Source: an uncultured Oscillospiraceae bacterium
Lineage (GTDB): Bacteria > Bacillota > Clostridia > Christensenellales > Aristaeellaceae
Length of the DNA stretch: 64,000 nt
Direction of reading: 5' to 3'
Assembly: GCA_964512175.1 (NCBI GenBank)
Contig: CAZEIC010000001.1
Coordinates: 2,306-66,305 of the forward strand
Positions 12,812 through 61,878 of this stretch are shown one piece after another. Each line of letters opens with the position of its first letter. Position 1 is the first letter of the stretch. A program made the position numbers and the translations under genes. The notes beneath the pieces were generated by a model that saw nothing but the letters and a program-made list of their open reading frames with translations, was not told the origin of the DNA and did not search any database.

Positions 12812-13363
12812 TTACTTCGCGGCGGCGGCGGCTTTCTCAAGGGACTTGAGGTATTCGCCGATGGTGATGGTGCAGGTCGCCTTCAGTTCTTCAACGTCGG
12901 GAACCTGGGTGTGGTTGCCGTCGCCCTTGTCATAGGTGGGGACAGCCAGCACGTCCGCGACGGTCTTGCCGATGCACCACGCTTCCAGCGCGGCAATCTG
13001 CTCGAACCACTCGGCGCCGATGGAGGAAGCCTTACGCATGCCATACGCTTCCTGCTTTTCCATCTTGGTGAGGATCTCGGCTTCCAGATCGTTGGTCACT
13101 TCGCCCTTGGGGGAGAAGGTCACTTTGGTCTGGGTGGTGTCCCACTTGACGAACTTGATGGTGCCGTCGTCGTTGAGGACGAGCGCGCAAGAGGTGGTGT
13201 TGACCTGCGCCTGACCGTCATAATCCACGCCGTCGTCCGTCACGGCAGCCTTGAGGGAGCCGATGCTAGTAACAGTGCCCAGCCCGAAGGTTTCGGCGGA
13301 AGCGGCAAGCGCCATGCCCAGGCACAGGGTGACGACCATCAGGAGAACGAGAAGCTTCTTCAT
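12812..13363 (-). CDS. Secreted protein of unknown function
   Basis: The signal peptide is MKKLLVLLMVVTLCLGMALAASA and an AAGGAG RBS is present. I found no recognisable catalytic or flavinylation motif. Confidence 0.6.
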   Translation of the reverse strand: MKKLLVLLMVVTLCLGMALAASAETFGLGTVTSIGSLKAAVTDDGVDYDGQAQVNTTSCALVLNDDGTIKFVKWDTTQTKVTFSPKGEVTNDLEAEILTKMEKQEAYGMRKASSIGAEWFEQIAALEAWCIGKTVADVLAVPTYDKGDGNHTQVPDVEELKATCTITIGEYLKSLEKAAAAAK

Positions 13364-14290: not shown

Positions 14291-15196
14291 TCACGGTACG
14301 AGCGTCGCGAAGTAAATAATGTCGGGCACGGAGCGCTTGAGCGGATTGCCCGGAGAGTTGATTTTCTTGTTCTGGAAAACCAGCGTGTTCGACGAGCCGC
14401 CGTCAAGGTTGTAGGCGATACGCACGCCCGTTTCGGACAGCGACGCGCCGATTTTCTGGACGGTCTTGGCGAACTGCGGAATCGTCATGCCGGTCTCGTC
14501 CGGGTCTTCCGGGCCTTCGGAGGAGACGATCAGGTATTCCAGCTTACCAAGCTGCGCGATGCACGCGCGCTGCGCCTGATTTTGCGCGCCGACGTTCTCA
14601 TAATTGATGAAATCCGACACCGCGACCTCTCCGTTCTCCACGAGGATCGGGCCGAAGGAGAACGTGTTCCAAATCGTCACGCCGTCTGGCAGCGCCGCCA
14701 TGAACGCTTCGACCGCGCGCTTGTTGGCGGCGAAAACGCCGTGCATGTCGCCGTTGGAATCCACCAGCAGCAAGTCCTCCCGGATGGGGCTGTTGCGATA
14801 GTTCTTCCCTTGGCGGATGATGAACCCCGCCTTGCGGCGCAGGTAGCTGTCGCCGTTGATGGCGACCACGGCGTTGTGCTTCTTGGCGATATCGCTCGCC
14901 ATCAGCGGGTCGCACTTATAAAAGCTCGACGCGGGCGCGGTGCGAAGCTGCGTGGGGTCGGCAATCTTGATGTGCGCGTACATGTACACCGTGTCATACT
15001 CGCGCCCCTCGCCGATGACCACGGAAATGGAAGCGTCCTTATACTCGCGGTCGGACAGATAATTCTCGGCTTTCGGCGGATGCCCGCCCGACAAATCAAC
15101 CTTCAGGGGCGCAAGCTCGCCCTCCGCCGCGCCGAAGCCCGCGAGCGCGGAAAGCAGCAATGCGATTGCAAGGATACGCCGGATGCCAAGGTGCAT
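14291..15196 (-). CDS. Secreted phosphodiester glycosidase family protein (NAGPA / DUF2233-like)
   Basis: A signal peptide (MHLGIRRILAIALLLSALAGFGAA) is followed by AINGDSY...LLLVD...FGPILVENG...AYNLDGGSS, the pattern of uncovering-enzyme-like domains. An AAGGAGGG RBS is present. Confidence 0.75.
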   Translation of the reverse strand: MHLGIRRILAIALLLSALAGFGAAEGELAPLKVDLSGGHPPKAENYLSDREYKDASISVVIGEGREYDTVYMYAHIKIADPTQLRTAPASSFYKCDPLMASDIAKKHNAVVAINGDSYLRRKAGFIIRQGKNYRNSPIREDLLLVDSNGDMHGVFAANKRAVEAFMAALPDGVTIWNTFSFGPILVENGEVAVSDFINYENVGAQNQAQRACIAQLGKLEYLIVSSEGPEDPDETGMTIPQFAKTVQKIGASLSETGVRIAYNLDGGSSNTLVFQNKKINSPGNPLKRSVPDIIYFATLVP

Positions 15197-15218
15197 GGTG
15201 TGTCCCTCCTTATGATGA

Positions 15219-16484
15219 TTACGGGGCGACCTTAAGCGACGTGCCAAAGCCGATGAGGCTGGTGACGCTGCGCGTCATGCCGCCGCCCGCGGTGTTCGCC
15301 GTGCCGCCCTTGTTGAGGCGCTCGCCCATGAAGACCAACGAAACCGTGCCGCCGCCGTCAAGGTTGAGCGCTTCCGTGACCCCCAGCGCGCGCATGCGGT
15401 CCGCCATCCAGTAGAAATGCGCGCCGTCCGACGTTTTCGTGCGGCCGTTGACCGTCAGAAGAATGTAGTGGTACGGCTCGATCATGCCGATGGCGCAGCG
15501 CGGCTCTTTGCGGAAGTTGTAGTCAACGTCGGCGGCATACTTGCCGTATTCGCCGTCCGTGAGCAGCACGGGCCCGAACGCCAGCGTGTGCACCGCGCCC
15601 ATCGCAAGGTATTCCTCGCCCGTGTGCGCGTCGCTGGCGAAGGCTTTCATGCTGCCGTCACTTAGCACCGCCATGACTTCGAGGTTGGGCAGTTTGTCGG
15701 TCGCGCCCGAACGGTAGGTTCTGTCGCTGAGCAGCTCGCCGTCGCGGATGACGATGCCCTGCATGATGCCGTACTGCCTGCGATGCCCGAAATAGTCGTC
15801 GGTGATGCCCAGCACGAGGTTGTTTTGCTTGGCGATGTCCACCGGCATGACGAAGGCGTAATAGCCCTTTTTGGTCTTCTCCGTCAGGCACGAGCGCAGG
15901 AAGGATTCCTCGCTCGCGTAGACCTCGCTCTCGAACCAGACGATAGGCTCGTTCGGGTCGGAAAAGCGCTTGATCTCGATGTGCAGAGAGTCGGAAATAT
16001 AGTACCAGTGCCCGTCCTCGTCGTCGGCAAACACGAACTCGCCGCCCGCCTCCGTCAAGAAGCCGCGCTCGTCCAGCGGCGGCAGCTCGGGCGCGGTGAC
16101 AGGCGCGACGACGGGCTTTCTTTGCGGCACGGTCTTGCCCGGGATAGCGGCATCGGAATAGATGAGCGCCTGCGTTTCGGGCGTGGCGTCGCCCGTCGCG
16201 GGCAGACCGTTGCTTTTCTGGAACTCTTTGACGCGCTTGGTCATGGTGGCGTTATACTTATGCGACAGGTTGTCGTAGGAACTAAAGTACCCCAGCCAGT
16301 ACAGGCGCTGTTTGAGCTTGAGCACGGAAATGCCCTCGTCGCCCTGCTCGAGCAGGGAATATGCCTGCGCGGGCGCTTCCGCCGTCTCGACAAGGCTCGC
16401 GCACGGCGCGCACAGCAGCGCCAACAGCAAGGCGACACACCCGATTCGCCGCGCCGCGCGGGAAAAGTCCGTCCATCCAATCAT
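15219..16484 (-). CDS. Secreted peptidoglycan-binding (PG_binding_1) domain fused to a phosphodiester glycosidase (NAGPA / DUF2233-like) domain
   Basis: The PG-binding repeat reads VLKLKQRLYWLGYF...KRVKEFQKSNGLPATGDATPET. The C-terminal part (FGPVLLTDGE ... ALNLDGGGT) is paralogous to the neighbouring gene. Confidence 0.75.
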   Translation of the reverse strand: MIGWTDFSRAARRIGCVALLLALLCAPCASLVETAEAPAQAYSLLEQGDEGISVLKLKQRLYWLGYFSSYDNLSHKYNATMTKRVKEFQKSNGLPATGDATPETQALIYSDAAIPGKTVPQRKPVVAPVTAPELPPLDERGFLTEAGGEFVFADDEDGHWYYISDSLHIEIKRFSDPNEPIVWFESEVYASEESFLRSCLTEKTKKGYYAFVMPVDIAKQNNLVLGITDDYFGHRRQYGIMQGIVIRDGELLSDRTYRSGATDKLPNLEVMAVLSDGSMKAFASDAHTGEEYLAMGAVHTLAFGPVLLTDGEYGKYAADVDYNFRKEPRCAIGMIEPYHYILLTVNGRTKTSDGAHFYWMADRMRALGVTEALNLDGGGTVSLVFMGERLNKGGTANTAGGGMTRSVTSLIGFGTSLKVAP

Positions 16485-16574
16485 GTGCGTTCATCCTGTT
16501 TCCGTGCGCATGGCGCACTGTTTTTCCGTCAAATTATAGCCAATGCGGAAAGCAATGTCAACCCGCGCGAACGC

Positions 16575-18974
16575 TCATTTGTTCGCTTCGAGGAACGCGC
16601 CGAAGAACGTCGCCTTCTCTTCCTTGGTAACGTCAAGCCACTTGCACACCGCCTCCACCACGACGGCGGGGCGCTCGCGCAGCACCTTGCGGACGTTCTG
16701 CACGCTGCCCTCCCACGCTTTAAGCGTCAGCGGCCAGCGTTCGCACTGATACGGGATGAACGGGCGCATGCGCGCCACCCACGCGTCCAGATGCGCGTCG
16801 AGCGCGCTCTTTGTGAACTTTTGGACAAGCAGCTCGCCGAGCCGCGCCAGAAACTGTTCACGCATGGCGGGCACGCCCATGAGCGCTGAGAACGGCACAT
16901 GGTCAAATTCGTTCTCCACGCGCGCGCTTTTGGCGCGCAGGAAGCGCTGCAGCGGCATGATACCCGTGCCGACCGTCTCCATCGCGGTGTCCAAATCGTA
17001 CAGCACCCATTTCCACTTGCCGCCGGGCACGCGGTAAAACCGCGCGTTCGTCACGTCGCGGCTGCCCGAGACGATCATGAACGCGGCGTAGTCAAAATAG
17101 CTGTCCACGTCGATTTGCGACAGCACGTAATCAAGCGCCTCCGGGGCGTTCAGGCTGTGCGCCTTGATGTACGCGTGCAGCGCGAGGTACTCGTCGGGCG
17201 AGCCGTTGTTGGCGACCGTGCCGTCGCCCACGAGAATCGTGATATCGTCGATGGTATCCTCGTCCGTCACGCCCTCATACTGGGCGACGGCGTGCTTGTT
17301 CACGCGCTCGCGGAGGTTGTAGTGCCCCCAGAGCTTGCCGTTGATATAGAGCAGCACGGGCTGGCAGTCGGACACCATGCAGTTTACGTCCATAGCAAGG
17401 CTGGTGATCAGCGCGTCGCGGAAGCGCAGGCCGTTCTTCGTGCCCTCCGTGCCGCAGCTTCGCAGCGTGATGGACTGGTAAGAAGCGTAATCGCGGTTGG
17501 GGAAGGGGTTGAAAGCAAACGCGTCCGCGCCGTACGCCTTACGCGCGAACAGCGCCATGCCCTTCTGGCTGAACCTGCGCGAGCCCTCGCCCGCGATGCA
17601 ATAGCCGCAGAGCGCGTTGAGCGCGCTCTCCCCCGCCTCGTCGAAATACTCGATTTGCACGGGGTATTCCCACATTTCGTTATACTTGGCGTACGCGCCC
17701 GTGCGCTGGTCGTCGAAATACGCCTTGTCCACCATCATCGACACCACCGGCACGCCGGGCGCGTCCGTCAGGAAGTACGTCGCGGCGACCGGGCTGGATA
17801 GGATCTCTCCCGGCGCGACAGCAGCCGCGCGCAGCAGCGTCGTTTTCGTGAACGTCAAGGGTTCTGTGTACAGCGTGGAACGCGCCGTCGGCGTGCCGCC
17901 GTCCAGCGTATAGCGAACCTCGCTCCCGGTGGGCGCGGAGAGCGTTACCGTGACAGAACCGGCATAAAACCCGCCCGAAAGGCTCAATACCGGTGCGTCG
18001 GTGCGCGCCCGATAGCTCGCGTCGGGGTTCTTTTTCCCGGGCGTCGATACGTCCAGATAACCCAGCGAACCGTCGCCCGCGCGGCCGTAGGCAATGTTGC
18101 CGTACTGCGCGGGAAGCCGCAGAACGTCTATGATTTCCGCGTCCGCGTCGCGCAGAACGAGCGTCGCGCCCTTGGCGGACAGCGCAAAGCCCGCGGCGAT
18201 CTCGCCCTTGTCGACAGGCTCGTCCGTGCAGTAGAGAACGACGTATTGCCCCGCTTTGAGCGTAATATCCGGCAGCGTGTAAGACTTGCCGCCCGAAAGC
18301 GCGGTGGCAAGCGAATATCCCGCAAGGTTCAGCGCTTCGCCCGAAACGTTGCGAAGCTCCAGCCAGTCGTGCCCCGGGTCGTCCTGAAACGGCGCGCACG
18401 ACGCCATGACCTCGTTGATGACGACGCGCCCGCCGACCGCAGGCAGCCCGTCCTCCGCAACGATCTTATTCTCTTGACCCGGCGTTGGCAGCCACGAAAG
18501 CCGCCACTCGCCGTCCGCTTCTCGCGCGAATGCAACGTCCGTCTGCTGCGCGCCGAAGGTCGCGCTGTCAATGGCAGCGCCGTCTTGATACAGCGTCACC
18601 GTCTCGCCGCCCGCACCGAGCTTGAACGCGGCGCGCCACTCGCCCGCCACGCTCTCGCCGACGCCGTCGCAATACACGAGCAGGTACTCCCCCGCCCCGA
18701 GCGTCGCGCCCTCGGGAAACTGGAAAGCGTATGGATTTTTCGCATCGTCCGACAGCGAATAGGCGGTCAGCAAGATCGCCGTATCGGTCGGGTTATACAG
18801 CTCCAGCCAGTCGGGCGACGCGCCCGCCGCGTCCTCGAGCGTGCCCGAGTTGGACGCCATCAATTCATTGATTCGCAAGCCCCGCGCCTGTTCGGCAAGC
18901 GCTGGGAGCATGCTCGCCAGCAGCGCGCAAACGCAGGCGGCGGCAAGCGCTCTCTTTATCGCGGTTTGTCCCAT
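16575..18974 (-). CDS. Secreted multidomain CotH kinase-family protein (two lamin-tail LTD domains, a chitobiase/hexosaminidase-C-like domain and a CotH domain)
   Basis: After the signal peptide there are two LTD-type repeats (LRINELMASN...DWLELYN and VVINEVMAS...DWLELRN). A VRYTLDGGTPT segment follows, then a CotH-like C-terminal region (LRSCGTEG...LLYINGKLWGHYNLRERV...). Confidence 0.8.
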   Translation of the reverse strand: MGQTAIKRALAAACVCALLASMLPALAEQARGLRINELMASNSGTLEDAAGASPDWLELYNPTDTAILLTAYSLSDDAKNPYAFQFPEGATLGAGEYLLVYCDGVGESVAGEWRAAFKLGAGGETVTLYQDGAAIDSATFGAQQTDVAFAREADGEWRLSWLPTPGQENKIVAEDGLPAVGGRVVINEVMASCAPFQDDPGHDWLELRNVSGEALNLAGYSLATALSGGKSYTLPDITLKAGQYVVLYCTDEPVDKGEIAAGFALSAKGATLVLRDADAEIIDVLRLPAQYGNIAYGRAGDGSLGYLDVSTPGKKNPDASYRARTDAPVLSLSGGFYAGSVTVTLSAPTGSEVRYTLDGGTPTARSTLYTEPLTFTKTTLLRAAAVAPGEILSSPVAATYFLTDAPGVPVVSMMVDKAYFDDQRTGAYAKYNEMWEYPVQIEYFDEAGESALNALCGYCIAGEGSRRFSQKGMALFARKAYGADAFAFNPFPNRDYASYQSITLRSCGTEGTKNGLRFRDALITSLAMDVNCMVSDCQPVLLYINGKLWGHYNLRERVNKHAVAQYEGVTDEDTIDDITILVGDGTVANNGSPDEYLALHAYIKAHSLNAPEALDYVLSQIDVDSYFDYAAFMIVSGSRDVTNARFYRVPGGKWKWVLYDLDTAMETVGTGIMPLQRFLRAKSARVENEFDHVPFSALMGVPAMREQFLARLGELLVQKFTKSALDAHLDAWVARMRPFIPYQCERWPLTLKAWEGSVQNVRKVLRERPAVVVEAVCKWLDVTKEEKATFFGAFLEANK

Positions 18975-20179
18975 GTTTCCCCCGTCAGCAGGTTGATGCC
19001 GGTCGATATGAACAGCATTTGGTCTACGCCCTCGACCTTGACAAGCTGCCCCGTGCGCCTGTGTCCGCAGGCGAACAGCTCGCCGTCTTGCTTCATGACC
19101 AGCAAGCCCTGTCCGCAGACGAACAACTTCGCCTCACCCGCCGCCATGACCTCGGCGGGCAGCAAATGTCCAAACCGCTGCTGCGCGCGCAAGCCCTCGG
19201 CGCTCTTGGCGAAATAGCGGCTGCCCCACGACCAGAGCGAGCCGTCCTCCAGCATGACGAGCGCCTGCGCGGAATACACGCTGATGTCCGTCACACGCAT
19301 CGGCAGCGGCACGCGCGTGGGCGTTCTGACGCTTTTGCCGCCCGTGTCCACGCCGCACTGGAGCAAATCGTTCGTGCCCCAAGCGTATACGTCGCCGTTT
19401 TCGTCGAGCACCGCCGCCCAGTACCCACCGCCCGCGAGCTTTTTGACCTTGATGCCGCCCAGCGGGAGCGCGACGGGCTTTGCGACCTTTTTCCCCTTCT
19501 GACCGAGGATCTGCCCGTATTCGTTGTTGCCCCATGCGTACACCGTGCCGTCCGCGCCAAGCGCCATGGAGAACGTGCCGCCCGCCTCGACCGACACGAT
19601 GTCCGCAAGCGGCAGCTTGGCGGGCGCGTTGACGAACACGTTGCTCTGCGACCCCGCGCCGACCTGCCCGTAATCGTTGCGCCCAAAGGCGTAGACCTCG
19701 CCCTTGTCGGTCAGCGCGAGCGTCTGCCCAAAGCCCGTCGAAAGCTGCGTAATCGTCTCGTCCGGCAGAATCGTGAGCTTTTTGTGCGCCATGAGGTCAA
19801 AACCGTTGCCCGGGAGCATCTGCCCGTGCCGGTTGCGCCCCGTGCCGTACAGGTCGCCGCCGGCATACACCAGATAGCTGTAATCACACCCGGCGACGAT
19901 ATCGACAAGCCCGGTATAATCGAGCTTGAGCGCCTTTTCTTCCTTATTTAATATCGCGCGTAAGACGGGCGTGTCGCCGCCCTTGCGCCCCGTGCCGAGC
20001 TGCCCGTACTGGTTCATGCCGAAGGCGTACAGCGTGCCGTCCGCCGCCAGCGCGTAGGCGTAGCCCCCGCCGATGGCGAGGATCACGCCGCTGTCCTCGT
20101 CCCGGTGCGATTCCGCAAACGCGCCCGCGCCAAGCAGCACGCAAAGCGCCAAGCATACGGCGAGTATTCGTTTCGTCAT
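18956..20179 (-). CDS. Secreted RCC1-repeat (beta-propeller) protein
   Basis: The signal peptide is MTKRILAVCLALCVLLGAGAFA. Repeated YxFGxNxYGQLG-type blades follow (YAFGMNQYGQLGTG, YGTGRNRHGQM, YAFGRNDYGQVGAG, YAWGNNEYGQILG, YAWGTNDLLQCG). The stop overlaps the CotH start by 19 nt. Confidence 0.8.
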   Translation of the reverse strand: MTKRILAVCLALCVLLGAGAFAESHRDEDSGVILAIGGGYAYALAADGTLYAFGMNQYGQLGTGRKGGDTPVLRAILNKEEKALKLDYTGLVDIVAGCDYSYLVYAGGDLYGTGRNRHGQMLPGNGFDLMAHKKLTILPDETITQLSTGFGQTLALTDKGEVYAFGRNDYGQVGAGSQSNVFVNAPAKLPLADIVSVEAGGTFSMALGADGTVYAWGNNEYGQILGQKGKKVAKPVALPLGGIKVKKLAGGGYWAAVLDENGDVYAWGTNDLLQCGVDTGGKSVRTPTRVPLPMRVTDISVYSAQALVMLEDGSLWSWGSRYFAKSAEGLRAQQRFGHLLPAEVMAAGEAKLFVCGQGLLVMKQDGELFACGHRRTGQLVKVEGVDQMLFISTGINLLTGETWDKPR

Positions 20180-22578: not shown

Positions 22579-23142
22579 TTAATCATTGGTGTATTGCCTT
22601 GCGTCTTCATAGGTTTTCAGGATGCGCACAGCGACCTCCGCGCGCGTCTGCCGCGAATCCATCGCCTGCTTTTCGATGAAGCGGTGCGCCTGCTTTTCCG
22701 GCATGGACAGCACGCGCTCGAGCGTGCGCTTGGCGCGATCGACGAGCCTTAGCTCCTCCATCTTGCGCAAAAGCTGGACGTTCTCCAGGAGCAGGTATGC
22801 GGCGCGCGCGTGCATCGCCCCGCAAAAGGTAAGCGCCTGCCGGAGCGTATCGCGGCGCACGGGCTTTCGGAGCGTCAGCACGCCGCATTCCTCCGCCTGC
22901 GGGCACGCCTCCTTCGCCAGCAGCACGACCGCGCTGGGCGTGCTGCGCGCCGCGTCCACGCACAATGAAACAATCCGCGCGTCCGCGCCGTCGCACAAAA
23001 GCAGCGCGGGCGCGTGCTCGTCCACCAGCGCGCGCGCCTGCTCGGCGCACGCGGCAAGCAGCACGGGCGCATACCCCGCTTCCGTCAGGAGCGCCGCCAG
23101 CATATCCGCGCTTTTCCCGGACAACAGCACGCAAGACGGCAC
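22579..23142 (-). CDS. ANTAR-domain RNA-binding regulator with an N-terminal receiver-like domain
   Basis: The C-terminal ANTAR region reads LVDRAKRTLERVLSMPEKQAHRFIEKQAMDSRQTRAEVAVRIL. The N-terminal roughly 110 aa are CheY-like but lack the usual N-terminal acidic pair. The GTG start has a GAGGTG RBS. Confidence 0.8.
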   Translation of the reverse strand: MPSCVLLSGKSADMLAALLTEAGYAPVLLAACAEQARALVDEHAPALLLCDGADARIVSLCVDAARSTPSAVVLLAKEACPQAEECGVLTLRKPVRRDTLRQALTFCGAMHARAAYLLLENVQLLRKMEELRLVDRAKRTLERVLSMPEKQAHRFIEKQAMDSRQTRAEVAVRILKTYEDARQYTND

Positions 23143-48037: not shown

Positions 48038-51000
48038 TCAATACCAAATCCAGTTCTGGAATATGCGGACGGCTTCCATCCACGAGATGGGCGCCATCAC
48101 GCCGCTGGCATACGGGAAATACGCGATGAACACGGCGGCGGCAAGCGCGATGAACCCCCATGCCGCCCATTTGCCGATTTTGGGCGCAACGTCATATAGC
48201 CAGTCAAAGCACAGCGCGATGCACAGGATGATGAACGGCACGCTGGTGAAGTAGTGGTAGATGTACGTCCCGCGCGGCACGAACATCCACGGAACGAACT
48301 GCGCGGCGTAGGAAATCAGCAGCAGCGCGGGGCGCATGTCGTTTTCCTTGGTGTGCAGCGCCGGAACGCCCGCGCGCACATGCCGCCAGATCATGACGCA
48401 CAGCGCGACGACCGCCGCCAGCAGCCCGCCCCACCAGATGGCGAGGTTGCCCAGCGCCGTGATGCTCACCGCCATGCCGAACGGCTCGAACTTGCCTTGA
48501 TGGTAGAAAATGGGCTGTAAGCACAGCGGCCACTCGTACCACGGCGAGGCGAACGGGTGATCCGCGCCGCGCCCCGGCTCGGAATGGTATTCCAGCATGC
48601 CCTGCGCCGCCTGCACGACGCGCTCGAGCGACACGCCGCCAGCCGCGCGGAAGTACGGGATATAGGACAGGTAGTAAATCAGCGCGGGAATGGCGACGAA
48701 GAACGCGAGGCAACACGCGAGCGTCAGCAGGATGCGCTTGTTGGCGGTCTGCGCGGCGACCTCGATGACGGCGTCGCGCGCGAACGGTGTCTCTGGCTTT
48801 TCCTTGCGTTTCCTCGGCTTATCCCTTTGCGCGAGCATCGCGCGCGCGCAAACGCCCTCGCGCCAGCGCCTGTACATCGACCAGAAGAAGACGACCGCCA
48901 GCCCAACGCCCGCGTAGCAGCCCGTCCATTTGCTGGCGACCGCCAGCCCGAAAAACAGCCCCGACAGCCCCAGCGGCACGAGCGTTTTCCAGAAGGGCAC
49001 GGCGAAAAAGTCCATCAATACGTACCGGAACATGCAGTAGGACGCAAGGATGATGAACAGCACCACGAAGCTGTCGATGGTGGCGATGCGCGTCTGCGTG
49101 AAGTGCATGCAGTCCAGCGCCAGCAGCAGCATCGGCATCGCGGCAAGCAGCCGGCGTTTTGTCAGAAGTTTGCCCAGCATATACATGCCCGGCAGCATCA
49201 ACACGCCGCAGAGCGCGCCCGCGAAGCGCCAGCCGAACGGCGTCATGCCGAAGATGGCGATCGCCCAGCTGATGAACACCTTGCCAAGCGGCGGGTGCGA
49301 AGTCTCGTAGGTGCGCAGCCCGTGCAGATGCTCGTAACCCGTGCGCGCGTGGTACATCAAAATACATGCTGTTGAACCACGAAGGCTCGTCGGTCATCAC
49401 GGTTTGCTCGTCGATCAGCGCCTGCGCGTCTTCCAGCGCCTCCACGCCTTCTTCCAACACCAGCGACACCGGCAATACCTCGCCCGTGTCCGCGTCGCGG
49501 AACTGGATCTCCCAGATGTCGATGCCGATGTCCTTGGCGGTCAGCAGGATATAGCGCCCCTGCATCTCGCGCGTGGCGGCGAGGTAGGAGATCGCGCCCG
49601 GCTCGCCCGCCGTCTCAACGACGTACTTCCACTGGTAGCAGTCGCCGTCGGTCAGGCAGGCGTAGTACGCCTCGCCGTAGTACGCGCCGTCCTCGCTCGT
49701 CTGCAAGGTAAACTCCGAGTTCTGCGGCCAGTGGATGCCGCCGTAATACAGCGCCCGGAAACGCCGTGTTTCGCCCAAATCGAGCACCACCTGCTCGTCC
49801 CATTCATGCGCCGTCCAGCTCGTCTGCGGCGCTTGCGTCGCGCCGAGATTGACCAGCGCGAGCACGGCGTACAAAGCCGTCGCCGTCAGCATGATCAGCC
49901 AGTCTTTTTTGTCCATTCGCCTTGTCTCGGGCGGGTTGCGCAGCGTGCGCGCCGCGTGCGATTCCAGCGGCGCGTCCTGCCGCGTCGGCGCTTCGCGAGC
50001 GGCAGACAGCGGCGGCAGCGGCGCTCTGTCCGGGTCGGTGACGGCGCCGGACAGATACAGCGCGTAAGCCAGCGCCGCGCAGTTGAGCGCCGAGAGAAGA
50101 TACTCCAGCGCGGCGGAATCGCTCTCGATGCCCGCCACGGGCGCTTGCAGGTGCGCCGCCGCGCCGCCGATGCGGATGTTTCTGTCCAGCACGAGCGACA
50201 CGTTGAGGAACACCGTCGCCATCAGAAGGATGGCAAGCCATAGCGCGCGCCTGTCCTTTTCCAGCGCGTAAGCGACGAGGAACAGCGGCACGGCGGCGAA
50301 CAGGTAGCGCTCGTGCATCATGCCGCCCAGCACGAACATCGCAAGCAGCAGCACGCCGCCCATGAACGGCAGATGCCGGATGGAGCGCCCGCGGAAGTAG
50401 ACAGCGGCGGCGCAGACGACGCACACGCAGAGCATCAGCGCGCTATACGCGCCGTAGGTCATCGCAACGGGCAGCAGCGCGATTTGCGCGAGCACGCACA
50501 GCGCGATGTACGGCGCGGGCGCGCGCAGGTCTAGCAGCTTCTTATAGTCGCCTTTCGCGCGCCAGACCAGCCAGCCGAGCGCCGGCAGGAACAGGCAGAT
50601 CGCTGTAAAGCGCAGACCGAAGGGCGCAAGCGTCCCGGCGGGCGTCCAGTTCTTGCCAAACAGGAAGTACAGGTTGCAGCCGTTGACCGAGGCGTAGCCG
50701 TACTGCCCCATCGTGTCGCCGTATAGTTCGAGCAGCCAGCCGACGCCGCCCATGTTCACCGAGAACGGCGCGATAACGGCGATCGCCAGCACAAGCGCCG
50801 CGCCCAGCCCAATCAGCATGTCGCGCAGCGTCTTTTTATCGAAATGCCAGACAAGCTCGCAAATCAGCGCCATCAGCCCCAACGGCCCGAACATCAACGC
50901 CTGCGGCTTCATGAGCACCGACAGCATGTATACAGGCAGCGCGAAGCGCCACTTGCCGTCCGCCGCGAAAAGCACGGTCAACAGAATCAGCAGCGTCAGC

Positions 51001-52145
51001 ACGCTGTCGGTTTGCCCCCATGCGGCGCTGGTCGCAAACGCCATCGGCGAAAACGCGAACAGCATGGACAGCGCGGCGGCGGCGGTCGCGGGCAGGTACC
51101 GCTTTCCGATATAATAGAGCGTCAGCGCGATGCCGATATCGCAGAGGATGGGCGGCAGCTTGACCGCCAGCTCGCTCGCGCCCGCCCCGCCCGACAGCGC
51201 GTCGACCAGCCAGAGCACGAGCATATAGGCGGGCGGATAATCGCTGTGCCCCGCCCCGAGGTAGAAATTCGCAGGACCGCCCGCGCCCATGGCGCTCGCC
51301 CAGCCCCGGAAACAGCCGATGTCCACGTCGTACCCCGGAATCGTCCCGGCGATCAGCAGCCGCAGCCCCAGCGCGACCAGCAGCAGCGCGCCCAGTGCAA
51401 ACGGCACGGCGCGCTCGCGCTTGTCATCGAGCGCTTTCATCTCGCGCATGCCGTCCATGTAACGCGCGAGGAACGCGCAGACGGCGCACGCGGCGAGCGC
51501 GACCGGCAGCAGCCACCGCCACGCGGGCGAAGGCTCGTCCGAGGCGGGCTGCGCGGAAGCGACCTGATACAGCTTCTGCAGCGCGTACCCCGACGGCACG
51601 CTGTCCACGCGCATGAGGCTCACGCTGTCGAACGTCGCCTCGCCCGTCGCCTCGCCCGAATACCCGCCGAGCCGCGCGAAGACCGTCAGCCGCGTCTGCG
51701 ATTCGCCCGTTTGCCCGTAAAGCGCGATTTCGCGCCATTCGCCGCCGGTGTCGTACACAGCGTCCGACAGGGCGTTCACACCCTCGACCGACACGTTCGC
51801 GCCGTACCCGCCCGCGCAGTCCGCCTTGACGCGCGCGGTGAGCCTGTACATCGTGTTTGGCGACACCGAGACGATTTGCGCGAAACGCGCGTCGTTGGCG
51901 GCGTGGTTGACGATCGTGACAACGCCGTTCTCCGCGGAATACTCGGTGTACCCGGGCGTGGCGATCCACGCGTCGGTATACCACTGGCTCGGCAGCCCGG
52001 CGGCGTCGAGCGCCTCAAACTCGGTGTTGGCAAGCAGCTCCTCATACGTGCCGCCGCCCGAGCGACCGCCCGTAAGCAGCAAAACGGCGGCCGCGATCGC
52101 GACGAGCGCGGCGGCGATGATGATCCACAGTGTCTTTTTGTTCAT
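48038..52145 (-). pseudogene. Giant membrane glycosyltransferase gene interrupted by a frameshift near 49355. The upstream part (52145..~49356) has a TM anchor, a CBM-like domain, a GT-C-like polytopic domain and a discoidin-like domain. The downstream part (49360..48038) is a PMT/GT39-type glycosyltransferase.
   Basis: The two listed ORFs (48819..52145 and 48038..49360) overlap in different frames. The meaningful sequence of the first ends at ...SWFNSMYFD. The second begins (L)MYHARTGYEHLHGLRTYETSHPPLGK, a PMT-family N-terminus. The remaining roughly 180 codons of the first ORF are Arg/Ala-rich off-frame sequence. Confidence 0.7.
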
Positions 52146-53107: not shown

Positions 53108-53948
53108 CGTCCTCTACCTTTTCCAGCGTGATGCGCCCCAGCTTGCCCGCGCGGAACTCGTCCAGCACCACGGCGCAAGCGCGGTCGATGTCGTATTCGC
53201 CGCCGCGCAGCAGAAAGCCGCGTCCCTTGCAGACCGCTTCCATCAGCGCCAGCCCCGAAAGCGTGGTATCCTTGACTTTGAAACGCTCGGCGACCGCATC
53301 GGGCGCGGCGGCGAGCAAGTCCGTCATGAGCGACAGCGCCAGCGCGTACACGTCGAGCACCTCGTCGCGAATCGTGCCGATGTAGGAAAGCCGCTTGGCG
53401 GCGAGCGCGTCCGACAGCCGCGGCCACAGCAAGCCCGGCGTGTCCAGCAATTCCAGATAATCGTTGACGCGCACCCACTGGTTGGCGCGCGTCACGCCCG
53501 GACGGTCGCCGACCTTGGCGACTGCGCCGCCGTGCAGCCGGTTGATCAGCGTGCTTTTGCCGACGTTGGGCACGCCCACGACCATCGCGCGCACCGTCTT
53601 TTTGATGCCGCGCGCGGCGGCGCGCTCCACGGTGTCCCGCGCCGCGCGGTCGATGAGCGAAAGTGCCTCGCCCGCCTTCGCCTGCGAGTTGACGGCGGCG
53701 CAAAAGCGGTATTCGTGCGCGCGGAAATACGCGAGCCAGCGCTGCGTCTCGCGCGCTTCCGCGAGATCCGCCTTGTTGAGCAGCAACACGCGCTGCTTGC
53801 CCTCGGTCAGCTGCGCAAGGTCGGGATTGCGGCTGGACAGCGGCAGCCGCGCGTCGCACAATTCGACGACGACGTCCACGCGCATGAGCTGGTCGATGAG
53901 CAGGCGTTTCGCTTTCGCCATGTGCCCGGGATACCAGTTGATCTGCAT
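53079..53948 (-). CDS. rbgA: Ribosome biogenesis GTPase A (YlqF/RbgA)
   Basis: The protein starts MQINWYPGHMAKA. The GTPase motifs are circularly permuted (LLNKADL ... VGVPNVGKSTLINRL ... DTPG). Confidence 0.92.
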   Translation of the reverse strand: MQINWYPGHMAKAKRLLIDQLMRVDVVVELCDARLPLSSRNPDLAQLTEGKQRVLLLNKADLAEARETQRWLAYFRAHEYRFCAAVNSQAKAGEALSLIDRAARDTVERAAARGIKKTVRAMVVGVPNVGKSTLINRLHGGAVAKVGDRPGVTRANQWVRVNDYLELLDTPGLLWPRLSDALAAKRLSYIGTIRDEVLDVYALALSLMTDLLAAAPDAVAERFKVKDTTLSGLALMEAVCKGRGFLLRGGEYDIDRACAVVLDEFRAGKLGRITLEKVEDDATEQAAKG

Positions 53949-54090
53949 GCGAGCCTCTTTTTCCAGAATTTGTCATACAAACCCAATGTCGAGTTTTCCT
54001 TATAGTAATATCATGCTTTCCACTAAAAAGCAAGGAACATTTTCATATTTTACAGTTCGTTTGCACATGCTACCGGGCGAGGTGAACTGC

Positions 54091-56304
54091 ATGCAGGCGA
54101 TCATCATGGCGGGCGGCGAGGGCGTGCGCCTGCGTCCCATGACGCTCGACAGACCCAAGCCCATCGTCCCGCTGCTGGGCGAGCCGGTCATGGGCTACGC
54201 CCTCAAGCTCCTCAAAAGCCACCGCGTGACCGATGTGACCGCGACGCTCTATTACCGCCCCAAGGACGTGCGCGCCGCCTTCGGCAAGGGCGAGCGCTAT
54301 GGCGTGCGCATGCGGTATCAGGAGGAAGCCGTGCAGATGGGCACGGCGGGCGGCGTGCTGCTGGCGGGCGCGCACGTCAAGGGCACGTTCCTCGTGCTCT
54401 CGGGCGACGGGCTGACAGACTGCGATCTGTCCGACGCGCTCAAATTCCACAAAGAAAAGGGCGCGCTGGCGACGCTCGTCGTCAAGCGCGTGCCCGTGCC
54501 GCTCGCATACGGGCTGGTGCTGACGGACGAAGGCGGGCGCATCAAGCGGTTCATCGAGAAGCCGGGCTGGCGGCAGGCGTATTCCGATTTGTGCAACACC
54601 GGGTTGTATATATTGGAGAGGCGGCTGTTGGACGCGATCCCCGAGGGCGTGCCCTACGACTTTGGCAAGCAGCTTTTCCCGGCGCTGCTCGAAAAAGGCG
54701 AGAAGCTGTACGCCTACGAAACGCCGGGGTACTGGTGCGACGTGGGCGATCAGGCGGCGTATCTGCGCGCCCAGCGCGACCTCATGGCGGGTAAAGTACG
54801 CGTCGCGCTGCCCGACTGCGTGCGCATTTCCGACGGCGCGTGGCGCGACGCTTCGGCGCGCGTGCATGAGAGCGCCGTGCTCGAGGACGGCTGCTACATC
54901 GGCGAGAACGCGATCGTCGGCGCGGGCGCGCGGCTGTCGCGCTGCTGCCTGTGGCGCGGCGCGCGGGTGCGCGAGAAAAGCGAACTGGCGGGATGCGTCG
55001 TCTGCGATCGCGCGACGGTCGGCGTTTCGGCGCGGCTGTCGCAGGATACCGCGCTCGCAGCAGGCGCGTCGGTCGGCGCGCGCGCGTTCCTCGCGCCCGG
55101 GGTGAAGGTCTACCCGTCGCTGCGCGTCGCGCCCGACGCGGTCGCGATGGAAACGGTCATCTACGGCGACTACGCGTGCCCGCGCTTTGAGGAAATCGCC
55201 TCGCCCCAGCAGGCGTGCGCGCTGGTTTCCGCGCTCTGCCGCGCGCGCCCCGCCAAACGCGTGGTATTGCAGCGCACCGAGGGCGCGGAGGCGCTCTATC
55301 ACGTCGTGGCGGGCGCGCTTTTGCGCATGGGCGCGGACGTGATCCTCGCCGATCTCGGCACGCCCGGCATGCTCGCGGCGCTCGTGCGCGCGCTGCGCGC
55401 GGGGCAGGGCGTGTTCGTGCATCAGGACGCGCTCGACGCGCGCGATCAGCGCGGACTGCCCTATCCCCGTCCGGCGCTCGCCGCCGTCGAGCAGGCGGCG
55501 CTTCGCCGCGAGGGCGACCAGCCGAGCGAGCAGCCCGGTCAGACAAGCGCGTTCACGGGCGCGGTGGAGGTATACGCGGCAAGCCTGCCCGACGCGCCCG
55601 CCGCGTGCGCCGCGCTGCCCATCGCCGTCGTCTCGCAAAGCTCGCATATTCGCGCGCTCGCACGCGAGGTGCTGACCCGAAAAGGCATGAAAAACGCGCG
55701 CGTGACCGACGATCAGGCGCTGCTTCCCGGCGAGACGGGCTTTCTGCTCCCCTCGGACGGAACGCGCGCGCTGGCGTATGCGTCCGGCGTCACGCCGCCC
55801 GAGGAAACGCAGGCGCTGCTGCTGGCGCGCGCGCTCGCGAACGCGGGCGAGCAAACGCTCTATGCCTTTGACGGCTTGCCGTCGGCGGCGGAGACGCTCG
55901 CGCCCGTGCAGCCGCCGGACGGCAGCGAAGCCTGCGCGCGACAAACGCTGATGTGGTCGGACGGTCTTTCACGCATGCTGCTGACGCTGCCGCTGCTGAT
56001 GGAGCGTCCGCTGGACGGCTTGCTCGCCGCGCTGCCCGCCGCGCACATGATATCACGCGACGTGCCCTGCCCCGCCTCCGGCAAGAGCCGCGTGCTGCGC
56101 GCGCTCGCGGATACGGGCGGCGACGTGACGCTCGGCAGCGGCGTGCGCATCCACGATATGCGCGGCACCGCTTCCATCCTGCCCGACGAAACCCGCGCGA
56201 GCGTGCGCGTCACGGCGGAATCGGCAAACGCCGAGTTCGCCTGCGAACTGTGCGATTTCTATTCGGACAGGGTCGCGAAAGCCGCGCGCGGGGAAACAGA
56301 ATGA
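54091..56304 (+). CDS. Sugar-1-phosphate nucleotidyltransferase with a left-handed beta-helix region, fused to a degenerate phosphohexomutase-like C-terminal half
   Basis: The N-terminus is MQAIIMAGGEGVRLRPMT. Hexapeptide-repeat-like sequence follows. The C-terminal roughly 400 aa are collinear with PGM/PMM domains but carry no TASHNP-type phosphoserine loop. An in-frame ATG at 54067 is an alternative start. Confidence 0.8.
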   Translation: MQAIIMAGGEGVRLRPMTLDRPKPIVPLLGEPVMGYALKLLKSHRVTDVTATLYYRPKDVRAAFGKGERYGVRMRYQEEAVQMGTAGGVLLAGAHVKGTFLVLSGDGLTDCDLSDALKFHKEKGALATLVVKRVPVPLAYGLVLTDEGGRIKRFIEKPGWRQAYSDLCNTGLYILERRLLDAIPEGVPYDFGKQLFPALLEKGEKLYAYETPGYWCDVGDQAAYLRAQRDLMAGKVRVALPDCVRISDGAWRDASARVHESAVLEDGCYIGENAIVGAGARLSRCCLWRGARVREKSELAGCVVCDRATVGVSARLSQDTALAAGASVGARAFLAPGVKVYPSLRVAPDAVAMETVIYGDYACPRFEEIASPQQACALVSALCRARPAKRVVLQRTEGAEALYHVVAGALLRMGADVILADLGTPGMLAALVRALRAGQGVFVHQDALDARDQRGLPYPRPALAAVEQAALRREGDQPSEQPGQTSAFTGAVEVYAASLPDAPAACAALPIAVVSQSSHIRALAREVLTRKGMKNARVTDDQALLPGETGFLLPSDGTRALAYASGVTPPEETQALLLARALANAGEQTLYAFDGLPSAAETLAPVQPPDGSEACARQTLMWSDGLSRMLLTLPLLMERPLDGLLAALPAAHMISRDVPCPASGKSRVLRALADTGGDVTLGSGVRIHDMRGTASILPDETRASVRVTAESANAEFACELCDFYSDRVAKAARGETE

Positions 56305-56332: not shown

Positions 56333-56361
56333 TTGACATCCTCGCGCGACAAACATATAAT
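56333..56361 (+). promoter_or_regulatory. Consensus sigma-70 promoter of the candidate small RNA
   Basis: TTGACA (56333-56338), exactly 17 nt of spacer, and TATAAT (56356-56361). Confidence 0.75.
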
Positions 56362-56659: not shown

Positions 56660-58228
<1,569 letters not shown>

Positions 58229-61807: not shown

Positions 61808-61878
61808 TCGGGTCGCGCGCCTCCTGTCAATCATTCCGTGTCAGTATACCGCAATTCACCCGTGTGCGCAAGCGAGCA

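Follow-up and report, generated by a model that had tools for sequence, protein, structure and literature searches.

Exported RCC1-like, CotH-type and NAGPA-type proteins encoded side by side in a genome of uncultured Clostridia

Among Clostridia of the gut, the rumen and digesters, exported kinases of the CotH family and bacterial glycosidases of the NAGPA family are both very common, and to our knowledge no substrate is known for either. Several described proteins resemble them. In CotH of Bacillus subtilis, D228 is the catalytic residue and D251 binds metal, and the studied cotH constructs are under sigma-K control (PMC7821199). According to the authors of a study on cellulosomal CotH homologs, an extracellular protein would not be expected to have kinase activity (PMC12774918). 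In human NAGPA, Asp286 of the DGGGS motif is essential, Arg316 binds phosphate, and E226 and T227 contact GlcNAc (PMC13474241). For lamin-tail domains (LTDs), the predicted ligands are eDNA or analogous anionic polymers of the cell surface, deletion of the LTD partly impairs the function of B. subtilis ShfP, and NAGPA is among the domains fused to the radiation of LTD phosphoesterases (PMC11488536).

We analyzed a locus in which such proteins are encoded together, on the minus strand at 14291-20179 of a 64-kb stretch of DNA (the window). Its four genes, all of them real, encode an RCC1-like protein, an LTD-LTD-Ig-CotH protein and two NAGPA proteins, NAGPA1 and NAGPA2 (see table). An earlier note on this DNA had read them as a single extracellular module. 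We lean instead toward four Sec-exported envelope proteins of uncultured Clostridia (Bacillota) that form no dedicated four-gene pathway. We think it most likely that they are wall-associated enzymes of vegetative cells whose substrates, as we infer, are phosphodiester-linked wall glycopolymers.

Features of the four-gene locus and its surroundings (positions in the window; aa, residues of the encoded protein)
Feature	Coordinates	Strand	Description
guaA	22566-21019	-	4 nt before methyltransferase; translation, Pfam
SAM-dependent methyltransferase	21014-20196	-	16 nt before RCC1; translation, Pfam
RCC1	20179-18956	-	exported RCC1-like beta-propeller, 407 aa
CotH protein	18974-16575	-	exported LTD-LTD-Ig-like (CHB_HEX_C/Fn3_assoc)-CotH kinase-fold protein, 799 aa
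Lamin-tail domain 1	18555-18890	-	aa 29-140; best Pfam LTD stretch
Lamin-tail domain 2	18027-18428	-	approximately aa 183-316; second Pfam LTD stretch, boundaries approximate
Ig-like CHB_HEX_C_1/Fn3_assoc module	17775-17978	-	aa 333-400; Pfam 1.2e-16 and 3.2e-13
CotH kinase-fold domain	16578-17777	-	modeled aa 400-799, Pfam 462-771; Pfam and AlphaFold
Sigma-70-type promoter	16533-16561	-	TTGACA-17 nt-TATAAT, 12/12 match, within the 90-nt CotH-NAGPA1 gap
NAGPA1	16484-15219	-	exported PG_binding_1 plus NAGPA phosphodiester glycosidase, 421 aa
NAGPA2	15196-14291	-	exported stand-alone NAGPA phosphodiester glycosidase, 301 aa
proC	14268-13471	-	22 nt after NAGPA2; Pfam P5CR_dimer 1.3e-36
Promoter-like site	13444-13416	-	downstream of proC
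Exported 183-aa ORF	13363-12812	-	no family assigned; downstream of proC
Strong terminator hairpin	12789-12764	-	closes the run

The domain assignments proposed from the letters alone were all confirmed by Pfam HMMs, and AlphaFold and Foldseek agree for the CotH domain and NAGPA1. RCC1 has the repeat and RLD profile of a seven-bladed RCC1-like propeller (WD40_RLD 1.8e-95, 320.8 bits against a threshold of 150; RCC1 3.2e-38, 130.5 bits), and matches the PDB sequences of UVR8, HERC2 and RCC1 at 1e-52 to 2e-24 and that of BLIP-II weakly. In the CotH protein, the two LTDs (Pfam 2.6e-31) are followed by an Ig-like module with profile matches to the C-terminal domain of the beta-hexosaminidase 6Q63; the second LTD is also supported by an internal repeat in tblastn and by a conserved INEVMAS...TPG block. 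The CotH domain spans profile positions 5-321 of 322 in PF08757 (1.5e-34; 120.4 bits, cut-off 23.8). Modeled alone, it reaches a pLDDT of 92 and a pTM of 0.90 in AlphaFold, and the top Foldseek match is B. cereus CotH (5JD9/5JDA; E 2e-13, TM 0.67-0.75), with PI3K and Fam20 kinases next. A single-sequence phmmer search of the PDB gave no match, where a profile search succeeded; in the profile alignment, the NFD and WDYD aspartates of 5JD9 are matched by D640 and D660, which correspond to D228 and D251 in B. subtilis. Across 66 CotH homologs, the catalytic D640 and metal-binding D660 are invariant and the catalytic N643 is at least 90% conserved; the best homologs of the whole protein are 46-47% identical and share its architecture. 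The CotH domain keeps its fold and catalytic residues, and kinase activity is predicted from sequence and model. An exported kinase would, however, need an extracellular phosphate donor, which counts against a phosphorylation step by CotH.

Both NAGPA proteins score above the PF09992 cut-off of 25 bits (NAGPA1 80.8 bits, 1.8e-22; NAGPA2 78.3 bits, 1e-21). In NAGPA1 the core, approximately aa 145-415, is preceded by a PG_binding_1 domain at aa 53-107 (16164-16328; Pfam 1.4e-11, 44.9 bits against 23). Its AlphaFold model (pLDDT 89.6) matches 3OHG (DUF2233; 9e-13) and the vertebrate NAGPA structures 6U11, 6PKI and 6PKU in Foldseek, and the N-terminal domain adopts the three-helix fold of the SleB N-domain 6TCI (TMt 0.83) and of phage endolysin PG-binding domains. 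The fold of NAGPA2 is assigned by profile only, through clear matches to 5H3K, 3OHG, 6U11 and 6PKI; a single-sequence phmmer search of the PDB returned just a marginal one. NAGPA1 carries the motif NLD376GGGT, with D376, G377, G378 and R405 invariant in 55 homologs, and NAGPA2 the motif NLD265GGSS, with D265, G266, G267 and R288 conserved. The conserved Arg (R288, R405) lies 23-29 residues past the catalytic Asp, a spacing similar to that in the human enzyme, and is a candidate equivalent of the phosphate-binding Arg. Both NAGPA domains keep fold and catalytic residues, and glycosidase activity is predicted on those grounds; as their motifs are DGGGT and DGGSS and not the vertebrate DGGGS, the sugar specificity of NAGPA1 and NAGPA2 may differ. 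The catalytic residues that the functional reading of the CotH and NAGPA-like domains presupposed are present on alignment.

All four proteins look exported, as had been proposed, by a heuristic on N-terminal charge and hydrophobicity. Each has two or three Lys/Arg residues and then a hydrophobic core of 12 residues (Kyte-Doolittle 2.6-3.4); the signal peptide of RCC1 reads MTKRILAVCLALCVLLGAGAFA, followed by E. No second TM-like segment was found in any of the four, and the flanking methyltransferase and ProC have no such N-terminal signal. A lipoprotein reading, which would have explained the link to Lgt-like genes in relatives described below, was rejected, as the NAGPA2 signal peptide contains no Cys and the other three have no lipobox.

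Each of the four starts is preceded by a Shine-Dalgarno motif (AGGGGG-6 nt-ATG for RCC1, AAGGAGG for NAGPA2). The 19-nt overlap of the RCC1 stop with the CotH ATG and the 22-nt gaps on either side of NAGPA2 proved exact, and the overlap implies that RCC1 and CotH are translationally coupled. The housekeeping flanks, guaA and a SAM-methyltransferase upstream and proC downstream, were likewise borne out by translations and Pfam. The tight packing of the four genes is real but unspecific: in the co-directional run murG-ANTAR-guaA-MT-RCC1-CotH-NAGPA1-NAGPA2-proC (MT, methyltransferase), the gaps are 51, 12, 4, 16, -19, 90, 22 and 22 nt, the 90-nt CotH-NAGPA1 gap being absent from the earlier note, and the housekeeping genes lie equally close. 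Since guaA and proC share apparent operons with the array, packing is no evidence for a module. The CotH-NAGPA1 gap also contains a perfect sigma-70 promoter, one of only two such matches in the 64-kb window as against none in 100 shuffles. There are therefore apparently at least two predicted transcription units, guaA-MT-RCC1-CotH and NAGPA1-NAGPA2-proC. No terminator-like site was found on the minus strand in this gap by the promoter and terminator scan, so read-through past the internal promoter is possible. The NAGPA2-proC gap contains no terminator-like site, and proC is probably co-transcribed with NAGPA1 and NAGPA2; between guaA/methyltransferase and RCC1 the promoter scan found no promoter-like site. 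Rfam identified neither riboswitches nor leaders in the region, and only one tRNA, at 1403-1475. The GC3 of the four genes (0.82-0.86) equals that of their neighbors, so the genes are native. Horizontal acquisition was rejected, as GC and GC3 match the neighbors and the flanks are core genes. The host genome has a GC content of approximately 63%.

These data bear on two opposed readings. The first, that of the earlier note, is one dedicated four-gene extracellular module that phosphorylates and/or trims phosphodiester-linked glycans on the wall or spore surface. It draws support from the RCC1-CotH coupling and from four exported proteins with intact catalytic residues, but the perfect internal promoter splits the array, and the packing of guaA and proC is no looser. 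The second is a coincidental juxtaposition of four unrelated exported-protein genes within a long co-directional run of mixed function, which also contains murG, an ANTAR regulator, guaA, the methyltransferase, proC and ApbE. Against coincidence, the 19-nt RCC1-CotH overlap implies coupled expression.

To place the array in relatives, we compared 84 CotH-centered loci (stored flanks up to 10 kb), found with an alignment of 12 closer CotH sequences, and 34 dereplicated NAGPA2 lineages. The four-gene set is not co-conserved: all four genes occur together in 0/84 CotH-centered loci and 0/34 NAGPA2 lineages, where only pairs or triples were found. The CotH orthologs have no conserved neighbor across the 84 loci, their context being highly variable, and in 80 of them neither NAGPA nor RCC1 lies nearby within flanks of up to 10 kb; the link between CotH and NAGPA is thus weak. 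In 21 of the 24 evaluable lineages, the gene after NAGPA2 is a divergent Lgt-like one. RCC1 follows the Lgt-like gene in L096, L097, L099, L103, L111, L112, L117 and L124, and NAGPA2 directly in L109; these RCC1-linked loci form a single clade, and the association may reflect one inherited arrangement rather than repeated selection. The order NAGPA1-NAGPA2-Lgt-like occurs in L167 and L171, and NAGPA2-Lgt-like-CotH once (L081). Among NAGPA1 relatives on long contigs, the closest (53% identity) has a CotH gene followed by PGB-NAGPA1; this CotH, of 554 aa, is differently built and non-orthologous. Wall enzymes found beside these families in relatives include NlpC/P60, Amidase_3 and a PIG-L-NAGPA fusion. 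Part of the pair pattern could be regional synteny, as the HTH-pot ABC genes that continue from L111 are the same ones that precede NAGPA1 in L168 and L172. The Lgt genes found near CotH were rejected as members of the NAGPA2-linked family, since NCBIfam identifies them as canonical lgt, which is different.

Because family pairs recur in different relatives, a loose functional association is plausible, with NAGPA2 and the Lgt-like gene as its conserved core. The claim of one extracellular module survives in part: export, domains and recurring pairs, among them the independent CotH-NAGPA1 adjacency with the 554-aa CotH, speak for it, whereas the internal promoter, the failure of the four genes to co-occur in any locus compared, the lack of a conserved neighbor for CotH orthologs and the absence from the window of the Lgt-like gene, the best-conserved NAGPA2 partner, speak against it. 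We consider a dedicated module unlikely. Coincidence, which the highly variable context of CotH would suit, is rather unlikely too: different family pairs adjoin in several relatives, in varied orders and even with a non-orthologous CotH, while we roughly estimate chance adjacency at 0.2-0.5% per locus.

The spore surface, offered earlier as an alternative location, is disfavored. On this reading CotH would be a coat-protein kinase, like its Bacillus counterpart, and the NAGPA proteins would trim spore-surface glycans. B. subtilis synthesizes its coat proteins in the mother-cell cytoplasm, and these proteins have no signal peptide. The best-known role of CotH is that of a spore-coat kinase (PMC7821199), and NAGPA1 has a PG_binding_1 domain similar to the N-terminal domains found in SleB and SleC. 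However, all four proteins carry Sec signal peptides, whereas Bacillus CotH works within the mother cell. A consensus vegetative promoter precedes the NAGPA genes, which probably share a transcript with proC, and RCC1-CotH follow guaA. No sporulation gene was found among the approximately 55 window ORFs scanned, and the CotH family is widespread in gut and rumen Clostridia MAGs labeled Christensenellales, an order with a non-sporulating cultured member. We regard a spore role as very improbable. Equally hard to credit is an offensive or foraging role, in which the exported enzymes would attack foreign walls or exogenous phospho-glycans in competition or in nutrient and phosphate scavenging. 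Conflict systems of Bacillota have been proposed in which NAGPA domains are fused to wall-binding domains and NlpC/P60 (bioRxiv 10.1101/2025.01.14.632903), the PG-binding domain of NAGPA1 resembles phage endolysin ones, and teichoic acids are phosphate stores degraded by surface phosphoesterases (PMC11488536). The locus nevertheless lacks toxin, immunity and polymorphic features as well as diversifying binding domains. Members of the families lie at conserved, single-copy-like positions beside housekeeping genes, and the probable co-transcription with proC suggests routine physiology.

The cell-wall theme itself is supported, by a PG-binding domain in NAGPA1, by NlpC/P60 and Amidase_3 beside the families in relatives, and by an LCP-family gene in the window. 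Among the approximately 55 window ORFs scanned with Pfam, that gene (60959-61834, approximately 41 kb away) is the sole phosphodiester-forming candidate; a Stealth-type transferase, already noted as not visible, was indeed not found among them. Under the favored reading of vegetative, wall-associated enzymes, NAGPA1 would be tethered to peptidoglycan via PG_binding_1 and NAGPA2 would be free or membrane-proximal. Both would hydrolyze sugar-1-phosphate phosphodiester bonds in wall glycopolymers, candidate targets being an LCP-made linkage of the GlcNAc-1-P-6-MurNAc type or sugar-phosphate repeat units, and polymers might thereby be trimmed or released in vegetative wall turnover. The two LTDs and the Ig-like module may anchor the CotH protein to anionic wall polymers or eDNA, and the protein could phosphorylate an extracytoplasmic substrate, with the co-translated RCC1 propeller as the obvious candidate partner or substrate. 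In related Clostridia, a loose envelope neighborhood appears to comprise a DUF6273 protein, PGB-NAGPA, NAGPA, the divergent Lgt-like membrane protein, RCC1, NlpC/P60, an amidase and, in some cases, CotH, of which this genome would hold a rearranged subset. A bolder version, which we consider distinctly unlikely, is that related Clostridia possess an undescribed extracytoplasmic envelope system built on a core of NAGPA and the divergent Lgt-like membrane transferase, joined by RCC1, DUF6273, PG-tethered NAGPA, NlpC/P60 and sometimes LTD-CotH; in the rearranged window CotH would be translationally coupled to RCC1, the kinase "writing" and the glycosidases "erasing" phosphate-linked marks on wall glycopolymers or lipid-anchored polymers. 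If the loose linkage reflects shared function, it points to phosphodiester-linked wall glycopolymers and their trimming or release, and raises the question of extracellular phosphorylation of wall glycopolymers or wall proteins. The near-universal pairing of NAGPA with the Lgt-like gene in relatives is a more robust lead than the array in the window.

A search of a literature library for papers combining CotH with a phosphodiester glycosidase found none, and yielded nothing specific on secreted CotH or bacterial RCC1 proteins. CotH of B. subtilis and B. cereus (5JD9/5JDA) has the same PF08757 domain, atypical kinase fold and both catalytic aspartates. The window protein is approximately 15% identical to Bacillus CotH, adds a Sec signal peptide, two LTDs and an Ig-like module, which make it extracytoplasmic, has no cotB/cotG-like Ser-rich substrate gene nearby, and lies in a vegetative-type transcription context. 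It is therefore not a Bacillus-type coat protein H, which is cytoplasmic, without signal peptide, sigma-K-controlled and linked to cotB/cotG. The cellulosomal CotH homologs, such as Ccel_1101 of R. cellulolyticum (PMC12774918), are likewise extracellular CotH-family proteins of Clostridia; the window protein has LTDs in place of their dockerin. ShfP-type LTD surface phosphoesterases of B. subtilis resemble the CotH protein in combining a signal peptide, LTD and Ig-like modules with a phosphoryl-transfer-type catalytic domain (PMC11488536), but in the window this domain has the CotH kinase fold rather than a calcineurin-like phosphoesterase fold, and no sporulation link is evident.

Vertebrate NAGPA and BACOVA_00430 (DUF2233, 3OHG) share PF09992 and the fold of the window NAGPAs (Foldseek 9e-13 to 1e-10). 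The window proteins keep the D-G-G loop and its catalytic Asp, along with a downstream Arg at Arg316-like spacing; identity is 16-20%, and DGGGT/DGGSS replaces DGGGS. Unlike vertebrate NAGPA, the window proteins have no propeptide or furin site, EGF stalk or TM helix, and NAGPA1 has a PG-binding domain. For a pathway like that of mannose-6-phosphate, which combines Stealth/GNPT with NAGPA, none of the approximately 55 window ORFs supplies the transferase partner. Among Clostridia, NAGPA1 and NAGPA2 are ordinary members of the PG_binding_1 plus NAGPA and stand-alone (COG4632-type) glycosidases, with relatives in hundreds of clusters at 40-60% identity and with the same architecture. JGI labels COG4632-type glycosidases "exopolysaccharide biosynthesis protein". 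In these relatives NAGPA2 is nearly always followed by the Lgt-like gene, whereas in the window it is followed by proC. Each of the four genes is an ordinary member of a common Clostridia family, and the window, which establishes no new pathway, is one more unusual arrangement of them.

The RCC1, CotH, NAGPA1 (peptidoglycan-binding plus NAGPA) and NAGPA2 (stand-alone NAGPA) genes each match a minus-strand ORF, and Pfam confirms every domain named for them. Direct reading of the sequence bears out that the end of RCC1 and the CotH ATG share 19 nt and that NAGPA2 is flanked on both sides by 22-nt gaps, and a Shine-Dalgarno-like motif lies 5' of every start. All four N-termini feature 2-3 basic residues and then a 12-residue stretch of strong hydrophobicity, with no further TM-like segments found in any of the four proteins; by this heuristic they look exported, as the earlier note had claimed, and the flanking methyltransferase (MT) and ProC lack the pattern. 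A genomic island is ruled out, since the four genes have the GC and GC3 of their neighbours and the wider window holds core chromosome genes (murG, guaA, proC, murB-whiA, topA, dprA, trmFO and hslU). A fifth exported protein of the run (183 aa; signal peptide MKKLLVLLMVVTLCLGMALAASA|E) is separated from the four genes by proC, and has no Pfam or NCBIfam match and no relative among the fetched loci.

Coordinates of features in the window and in loci of relatives (L-numbers)
Feature	Position	Strand	Remark
RCC1	20179-18956	-	ORF
CotH	18974-16575	-	ORF
NAGPA1	16484-15219	-	ORF; PG-binding NAGPA protein
NAGPA2	15196-14291	-	ORF; stand-alone NAGPA protein
Exported ORF	12812-13363	-	183 aa; promoter-like site 13444-13416, terminator 12789-12764
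ANTAR-domain gene	22579-23142	-	187 aa
PMT-family ORF pair	48038-52145	-	1108 aa and 440 aa
Nucleotidyl-transferase ORF	53464-56304	+	946 aa; domain and hexapeptide repeats at residues 212-551
Second perfect promoter	56333-56361	+	~325 nt upstream of next entry
Arabinofuranosidase-domain ORF	56687-58228		
LCP gene	60959-61834	-	
lgt near CotH	L035:13336-14157; L045:11911-12711; L072:5160-5984; L075:11942-12739; L037		NCBIfam scores of 180-192 bits for the genes in L035, L045, L072 and L075
NAGPA2-Lgt-like pairs	L081, L085-L166, L167, L171; e.g. L111:9944-11894, L096:9959-11911		
RCC1 in NAGPA2 clade	L096:11908-13077; L097:3366-4532; L099:11876-13075; L103, L109, L111/L112, L117, L124		
NlpC/P60 after RCC1	L111:13094-13912		example
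DUF6273	L167:7224-7988; L096:1362-2108; also L095, L102, L106, L107, L171		
Envelope-protein run	L096:1362-14398		

The kinase and glycosidase domains retain their folds and catalytic residues; a lack of these residues, named in the earlier note as grounds for rejecting its reading, is seen neither in CotH nor in the two NAGPA domains. In a homologue profile, CotH D640 and D660 align to the Asp residues of Bacillus cereus CotH (5JD9) that correspond to D228 and D251 of B. subtilis, whose functional roles have been described (PMC7821199); neither varies among 66 homologues, and N643 hardly does. The model of CotH residues 400-799 (pLDDT 92) has 5JD9 and 5JDA as top Foldseek matches (TM 0.67-0.75), with PI3K and Fam20 kinases ranking next. 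For NAGPA, profile search reaches 3OHG and vertebrate NAGPA structures, which the NAGPA1 model (pLDDT 89.6) also matches, while its N-terminal domain resembles the peptidoglycan-binding domains of SleB and endolysins. The human NAGPA structure (2026) features an invariant DGGGS loop, an essential Asp286 and a phosphate-binding Arg316 (PMC13474241), whereas the loop reads DGGGT in NAGPA1 (NLD376-GGGT) and DGGSS in NAGPA2 (NLD265-GGSS). Asp-Gly-Gly and a downstream Arg (R405 in NAGPA1, R288 in NAGPA2) are kept across homologues.

The tight packing emphasized in the earlier note is real but not confined to these four, the housekeeping genes being equally packed: the co-directional run murG-ANTAR-guaA-MT-RCC1-CotH-NAGPA1-NAGPA2-proC has successive gaps of 51, 12, 4, 16, -19, 90, 22 and 22 nt. 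The sole larger gap, between CotH and NAGPA1, contains a perfect TTGACA-17-TATAAT promoter, then an RBS and the NAGPA1 ATG; such promoters occur twice in the 64-kb window and in none of 100 shuffles. No terminator-like site was found on the minus strand in the CotH-NAGPA1 or NAGPA2-proC gaps, and the first strong terminator of the run lies beyond the 183-aa ORF. The simplest reading of these signals would be two units, (guaA-MT-)RCC1-CotH and NAGPA1-NAGPA2-proC, with read-through from one into the other possible. Both units look vegetative rather than sporulation-specific, and the suggested spore-surface role is not borne out. The ANTAR-domain (RNA-binding antiterminator) gene lies between murG and guaA, ending 12 nt upstream of the latter, and Rfam detects no riboswitch around this region. 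The second perfect promoter precedes an ORF with an alpha-L-arabinofuranosidase C-terminal domain.

To assess gene neighbourhoods, 80 CotH-centred loci from species-representative genomes and 4 Logan contigs were screened by tblastn, phmmer and HMMs. Even the best CotH homologues share no more than 46-47% identity with the window protein, whose lineage is thus poorly sampled. Among the 84 loci, L068 and L081 alone have a NAGPA2-like gene near CotH, and L069 alone has RCC1 there; when all flanking ORFs were clustered, no conserved neighbour emerged, the commonest family occurring in 10/84 loci in mixed orientation. The Lgt genes near CotH in L035, L045, L072 and L075 score as canonical lgt. Overall, five loci, representing roughly two lineages, carry lgt downstream of their CotH orthologue at a distance of up to ~2 kb; in L045 and L075 the two genes are directly adjacent.

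NAGPA2 homologues are abundant, and their contexts, including those from 80 metagenome loci, were dereplicated at 80% identity to 34 lineages. An Lgt-family gene lies immediately 3' of NAGPA2 in 21 of the 24 evaluable lineages, including a human-gut clade. Its product, a membrane protein of 318-341 aa, scores 42 bits on Pfam LGT, but on the NCBIfam lgt equivalog, where the cut-off is 118.9, it reaches only 24-69 bits; it is a divergent Lgt paralogue. The two genes seem to form a conserved unit that is so far uncharacterised; the window holds no Lgt-like gene. An RCC1 homologue (E about 1e-70) is also present in 6/18 NAGPA2 lineages with enough sequence, or eight with two shorter contigs included; CotH and a NAGPA1-like gene each occur near NAGPA2 in a single lineage (L081 for CotH). 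In a neighbour-joining tree the RCC1-linked loci form one clade, with the window NAGPA2 elsewhere, grouping with L085, and the RCC1-NAGPA2 link may go back to one arrangement passed on by descent. Within that clade, the Lgt-like gene is followed by the exported RCC1 propeller (E about 1e-70 to window RCC1), then usually by NlpC/P60, or Amidase_3 in L096.

The NAGPA1 architecture is likewise common. Among relatives on long contigs, the closest (53% identity) is directly preceded by a gene for a 554-aa CotH, L167 and L171 show the order NAGPA1-NAGPA2-Lgt-like, and a pot-type ABC operon lies upstream in L168-170 and L172. Further neighbours in relatives include NlpC/P60, Amidase_3, DUF6273, a PIG-L-NAGPA fusion and PGA_cap proteins. 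The exported DUF6273 protein, absent from the window, recurs just upstream of NAGPA1 or NAGPA2 in several relatives. L096 carries a long run of exported envelope proteins, comprising DUF6273, a 708-aa PIG-L deacetylase-NAGPA fusion, three PGA_cap proteins, an LRR protein and NlpC/P60, alongside NAGPA2, Lgt-like, RCC1 and Amidase_3.

The four-gene array is thus unique among the sampled loci, which counts against a conserved system rather than for one, and the neighbourhood data bear out neither strict co-conservation of the four genes nor the dedicated module proposed earlier, although the cell-wall theme holds. Pure coincidence of four juxtaposed genes is nonetheless an uncomfortable explanation: varying pairs of the same families adjoin in different relatives, in differing orders, and in one CotH-NAGPA pair the CotH is built differently, which favours the view that the genes came together independently. 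By our rough estimate, a family with a few copies would be adjacent by chance at about 0.2-0.5% of loci; the CotH-NAGPA cases (the window, the P0244 contig, L081 and L068) are therefore suggestive, but few. Regional synteny may lie behind part of the pattern, as hinted by L111, where NAGPA2-Lgt-like-RCC1-P60 is directly continued by the HTH-pot genes found ahead of NAGPA1 in other loci.

LytR-CpsA-Psr (LCP) enzymes attach wall glycopolymers to peptidoglycan via a phosphodiester, chemically the same kind of bond as the NAGPA target, and the LCP gene in the window could encode a 'writer' of the kind of bond that NAGPA cleaves. In a sugar-1-phosphodiester, NAGPA enzymes cut at the glycosidic C-O bond (PMC13474241); for the lamin-tail domains (LTDs) found in surface enzymes of bacteria, the predicted ligands are eDNA or analogous anionic polymers, and one such domain adds to the surface anchoring of ShfP (PMC11488536). 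Building on this bond chemistry, linkage likeness and polymer binding, together with family knowledge, both NAGPA proteins would trim or release wall glycopolymer in vegetative cells, one of them tethered to peptidoglycan, while the CotH kinase, anchored by its LTDs, would have a target outside the cytoplasm; its prime candidate partner is the RCC1 propeller, which is co-translated with it. Weak points of this putative mechanism are the variant DGGGT/DGGSS motifs and the phosphate donor needed outside the cell (see also PMC12774918).

Elsewhere in the window, two overlapping ORFs in different frames both carry PMT-family (protein O-mannosyltransferase-like) domains; they may represent two separate genes, one gene broken by a frameshift, or the result of a mis-set start. 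A further ORF combines a nucleotidyl-transferase domain and hexapeptide repeats with long N- and C-terminal parts lacking Pfam matches.

The most interesting by-product of this analysis lies outside the window: NAGPA2 is almost always paired with a divergent Lgt-like gene, and RCC1 and NlpC/P60 often join the pair. Our literature search found no paper joining CotH with a phosphodiester glycosidase. Taken singly, none of the four genes is out of the ordinary: all belong to large families that have names yet are uncharacterised, namely 'CotH kinase family protein', 'phosphodiester glycosidase family protein' and RCC1-repeat protein.
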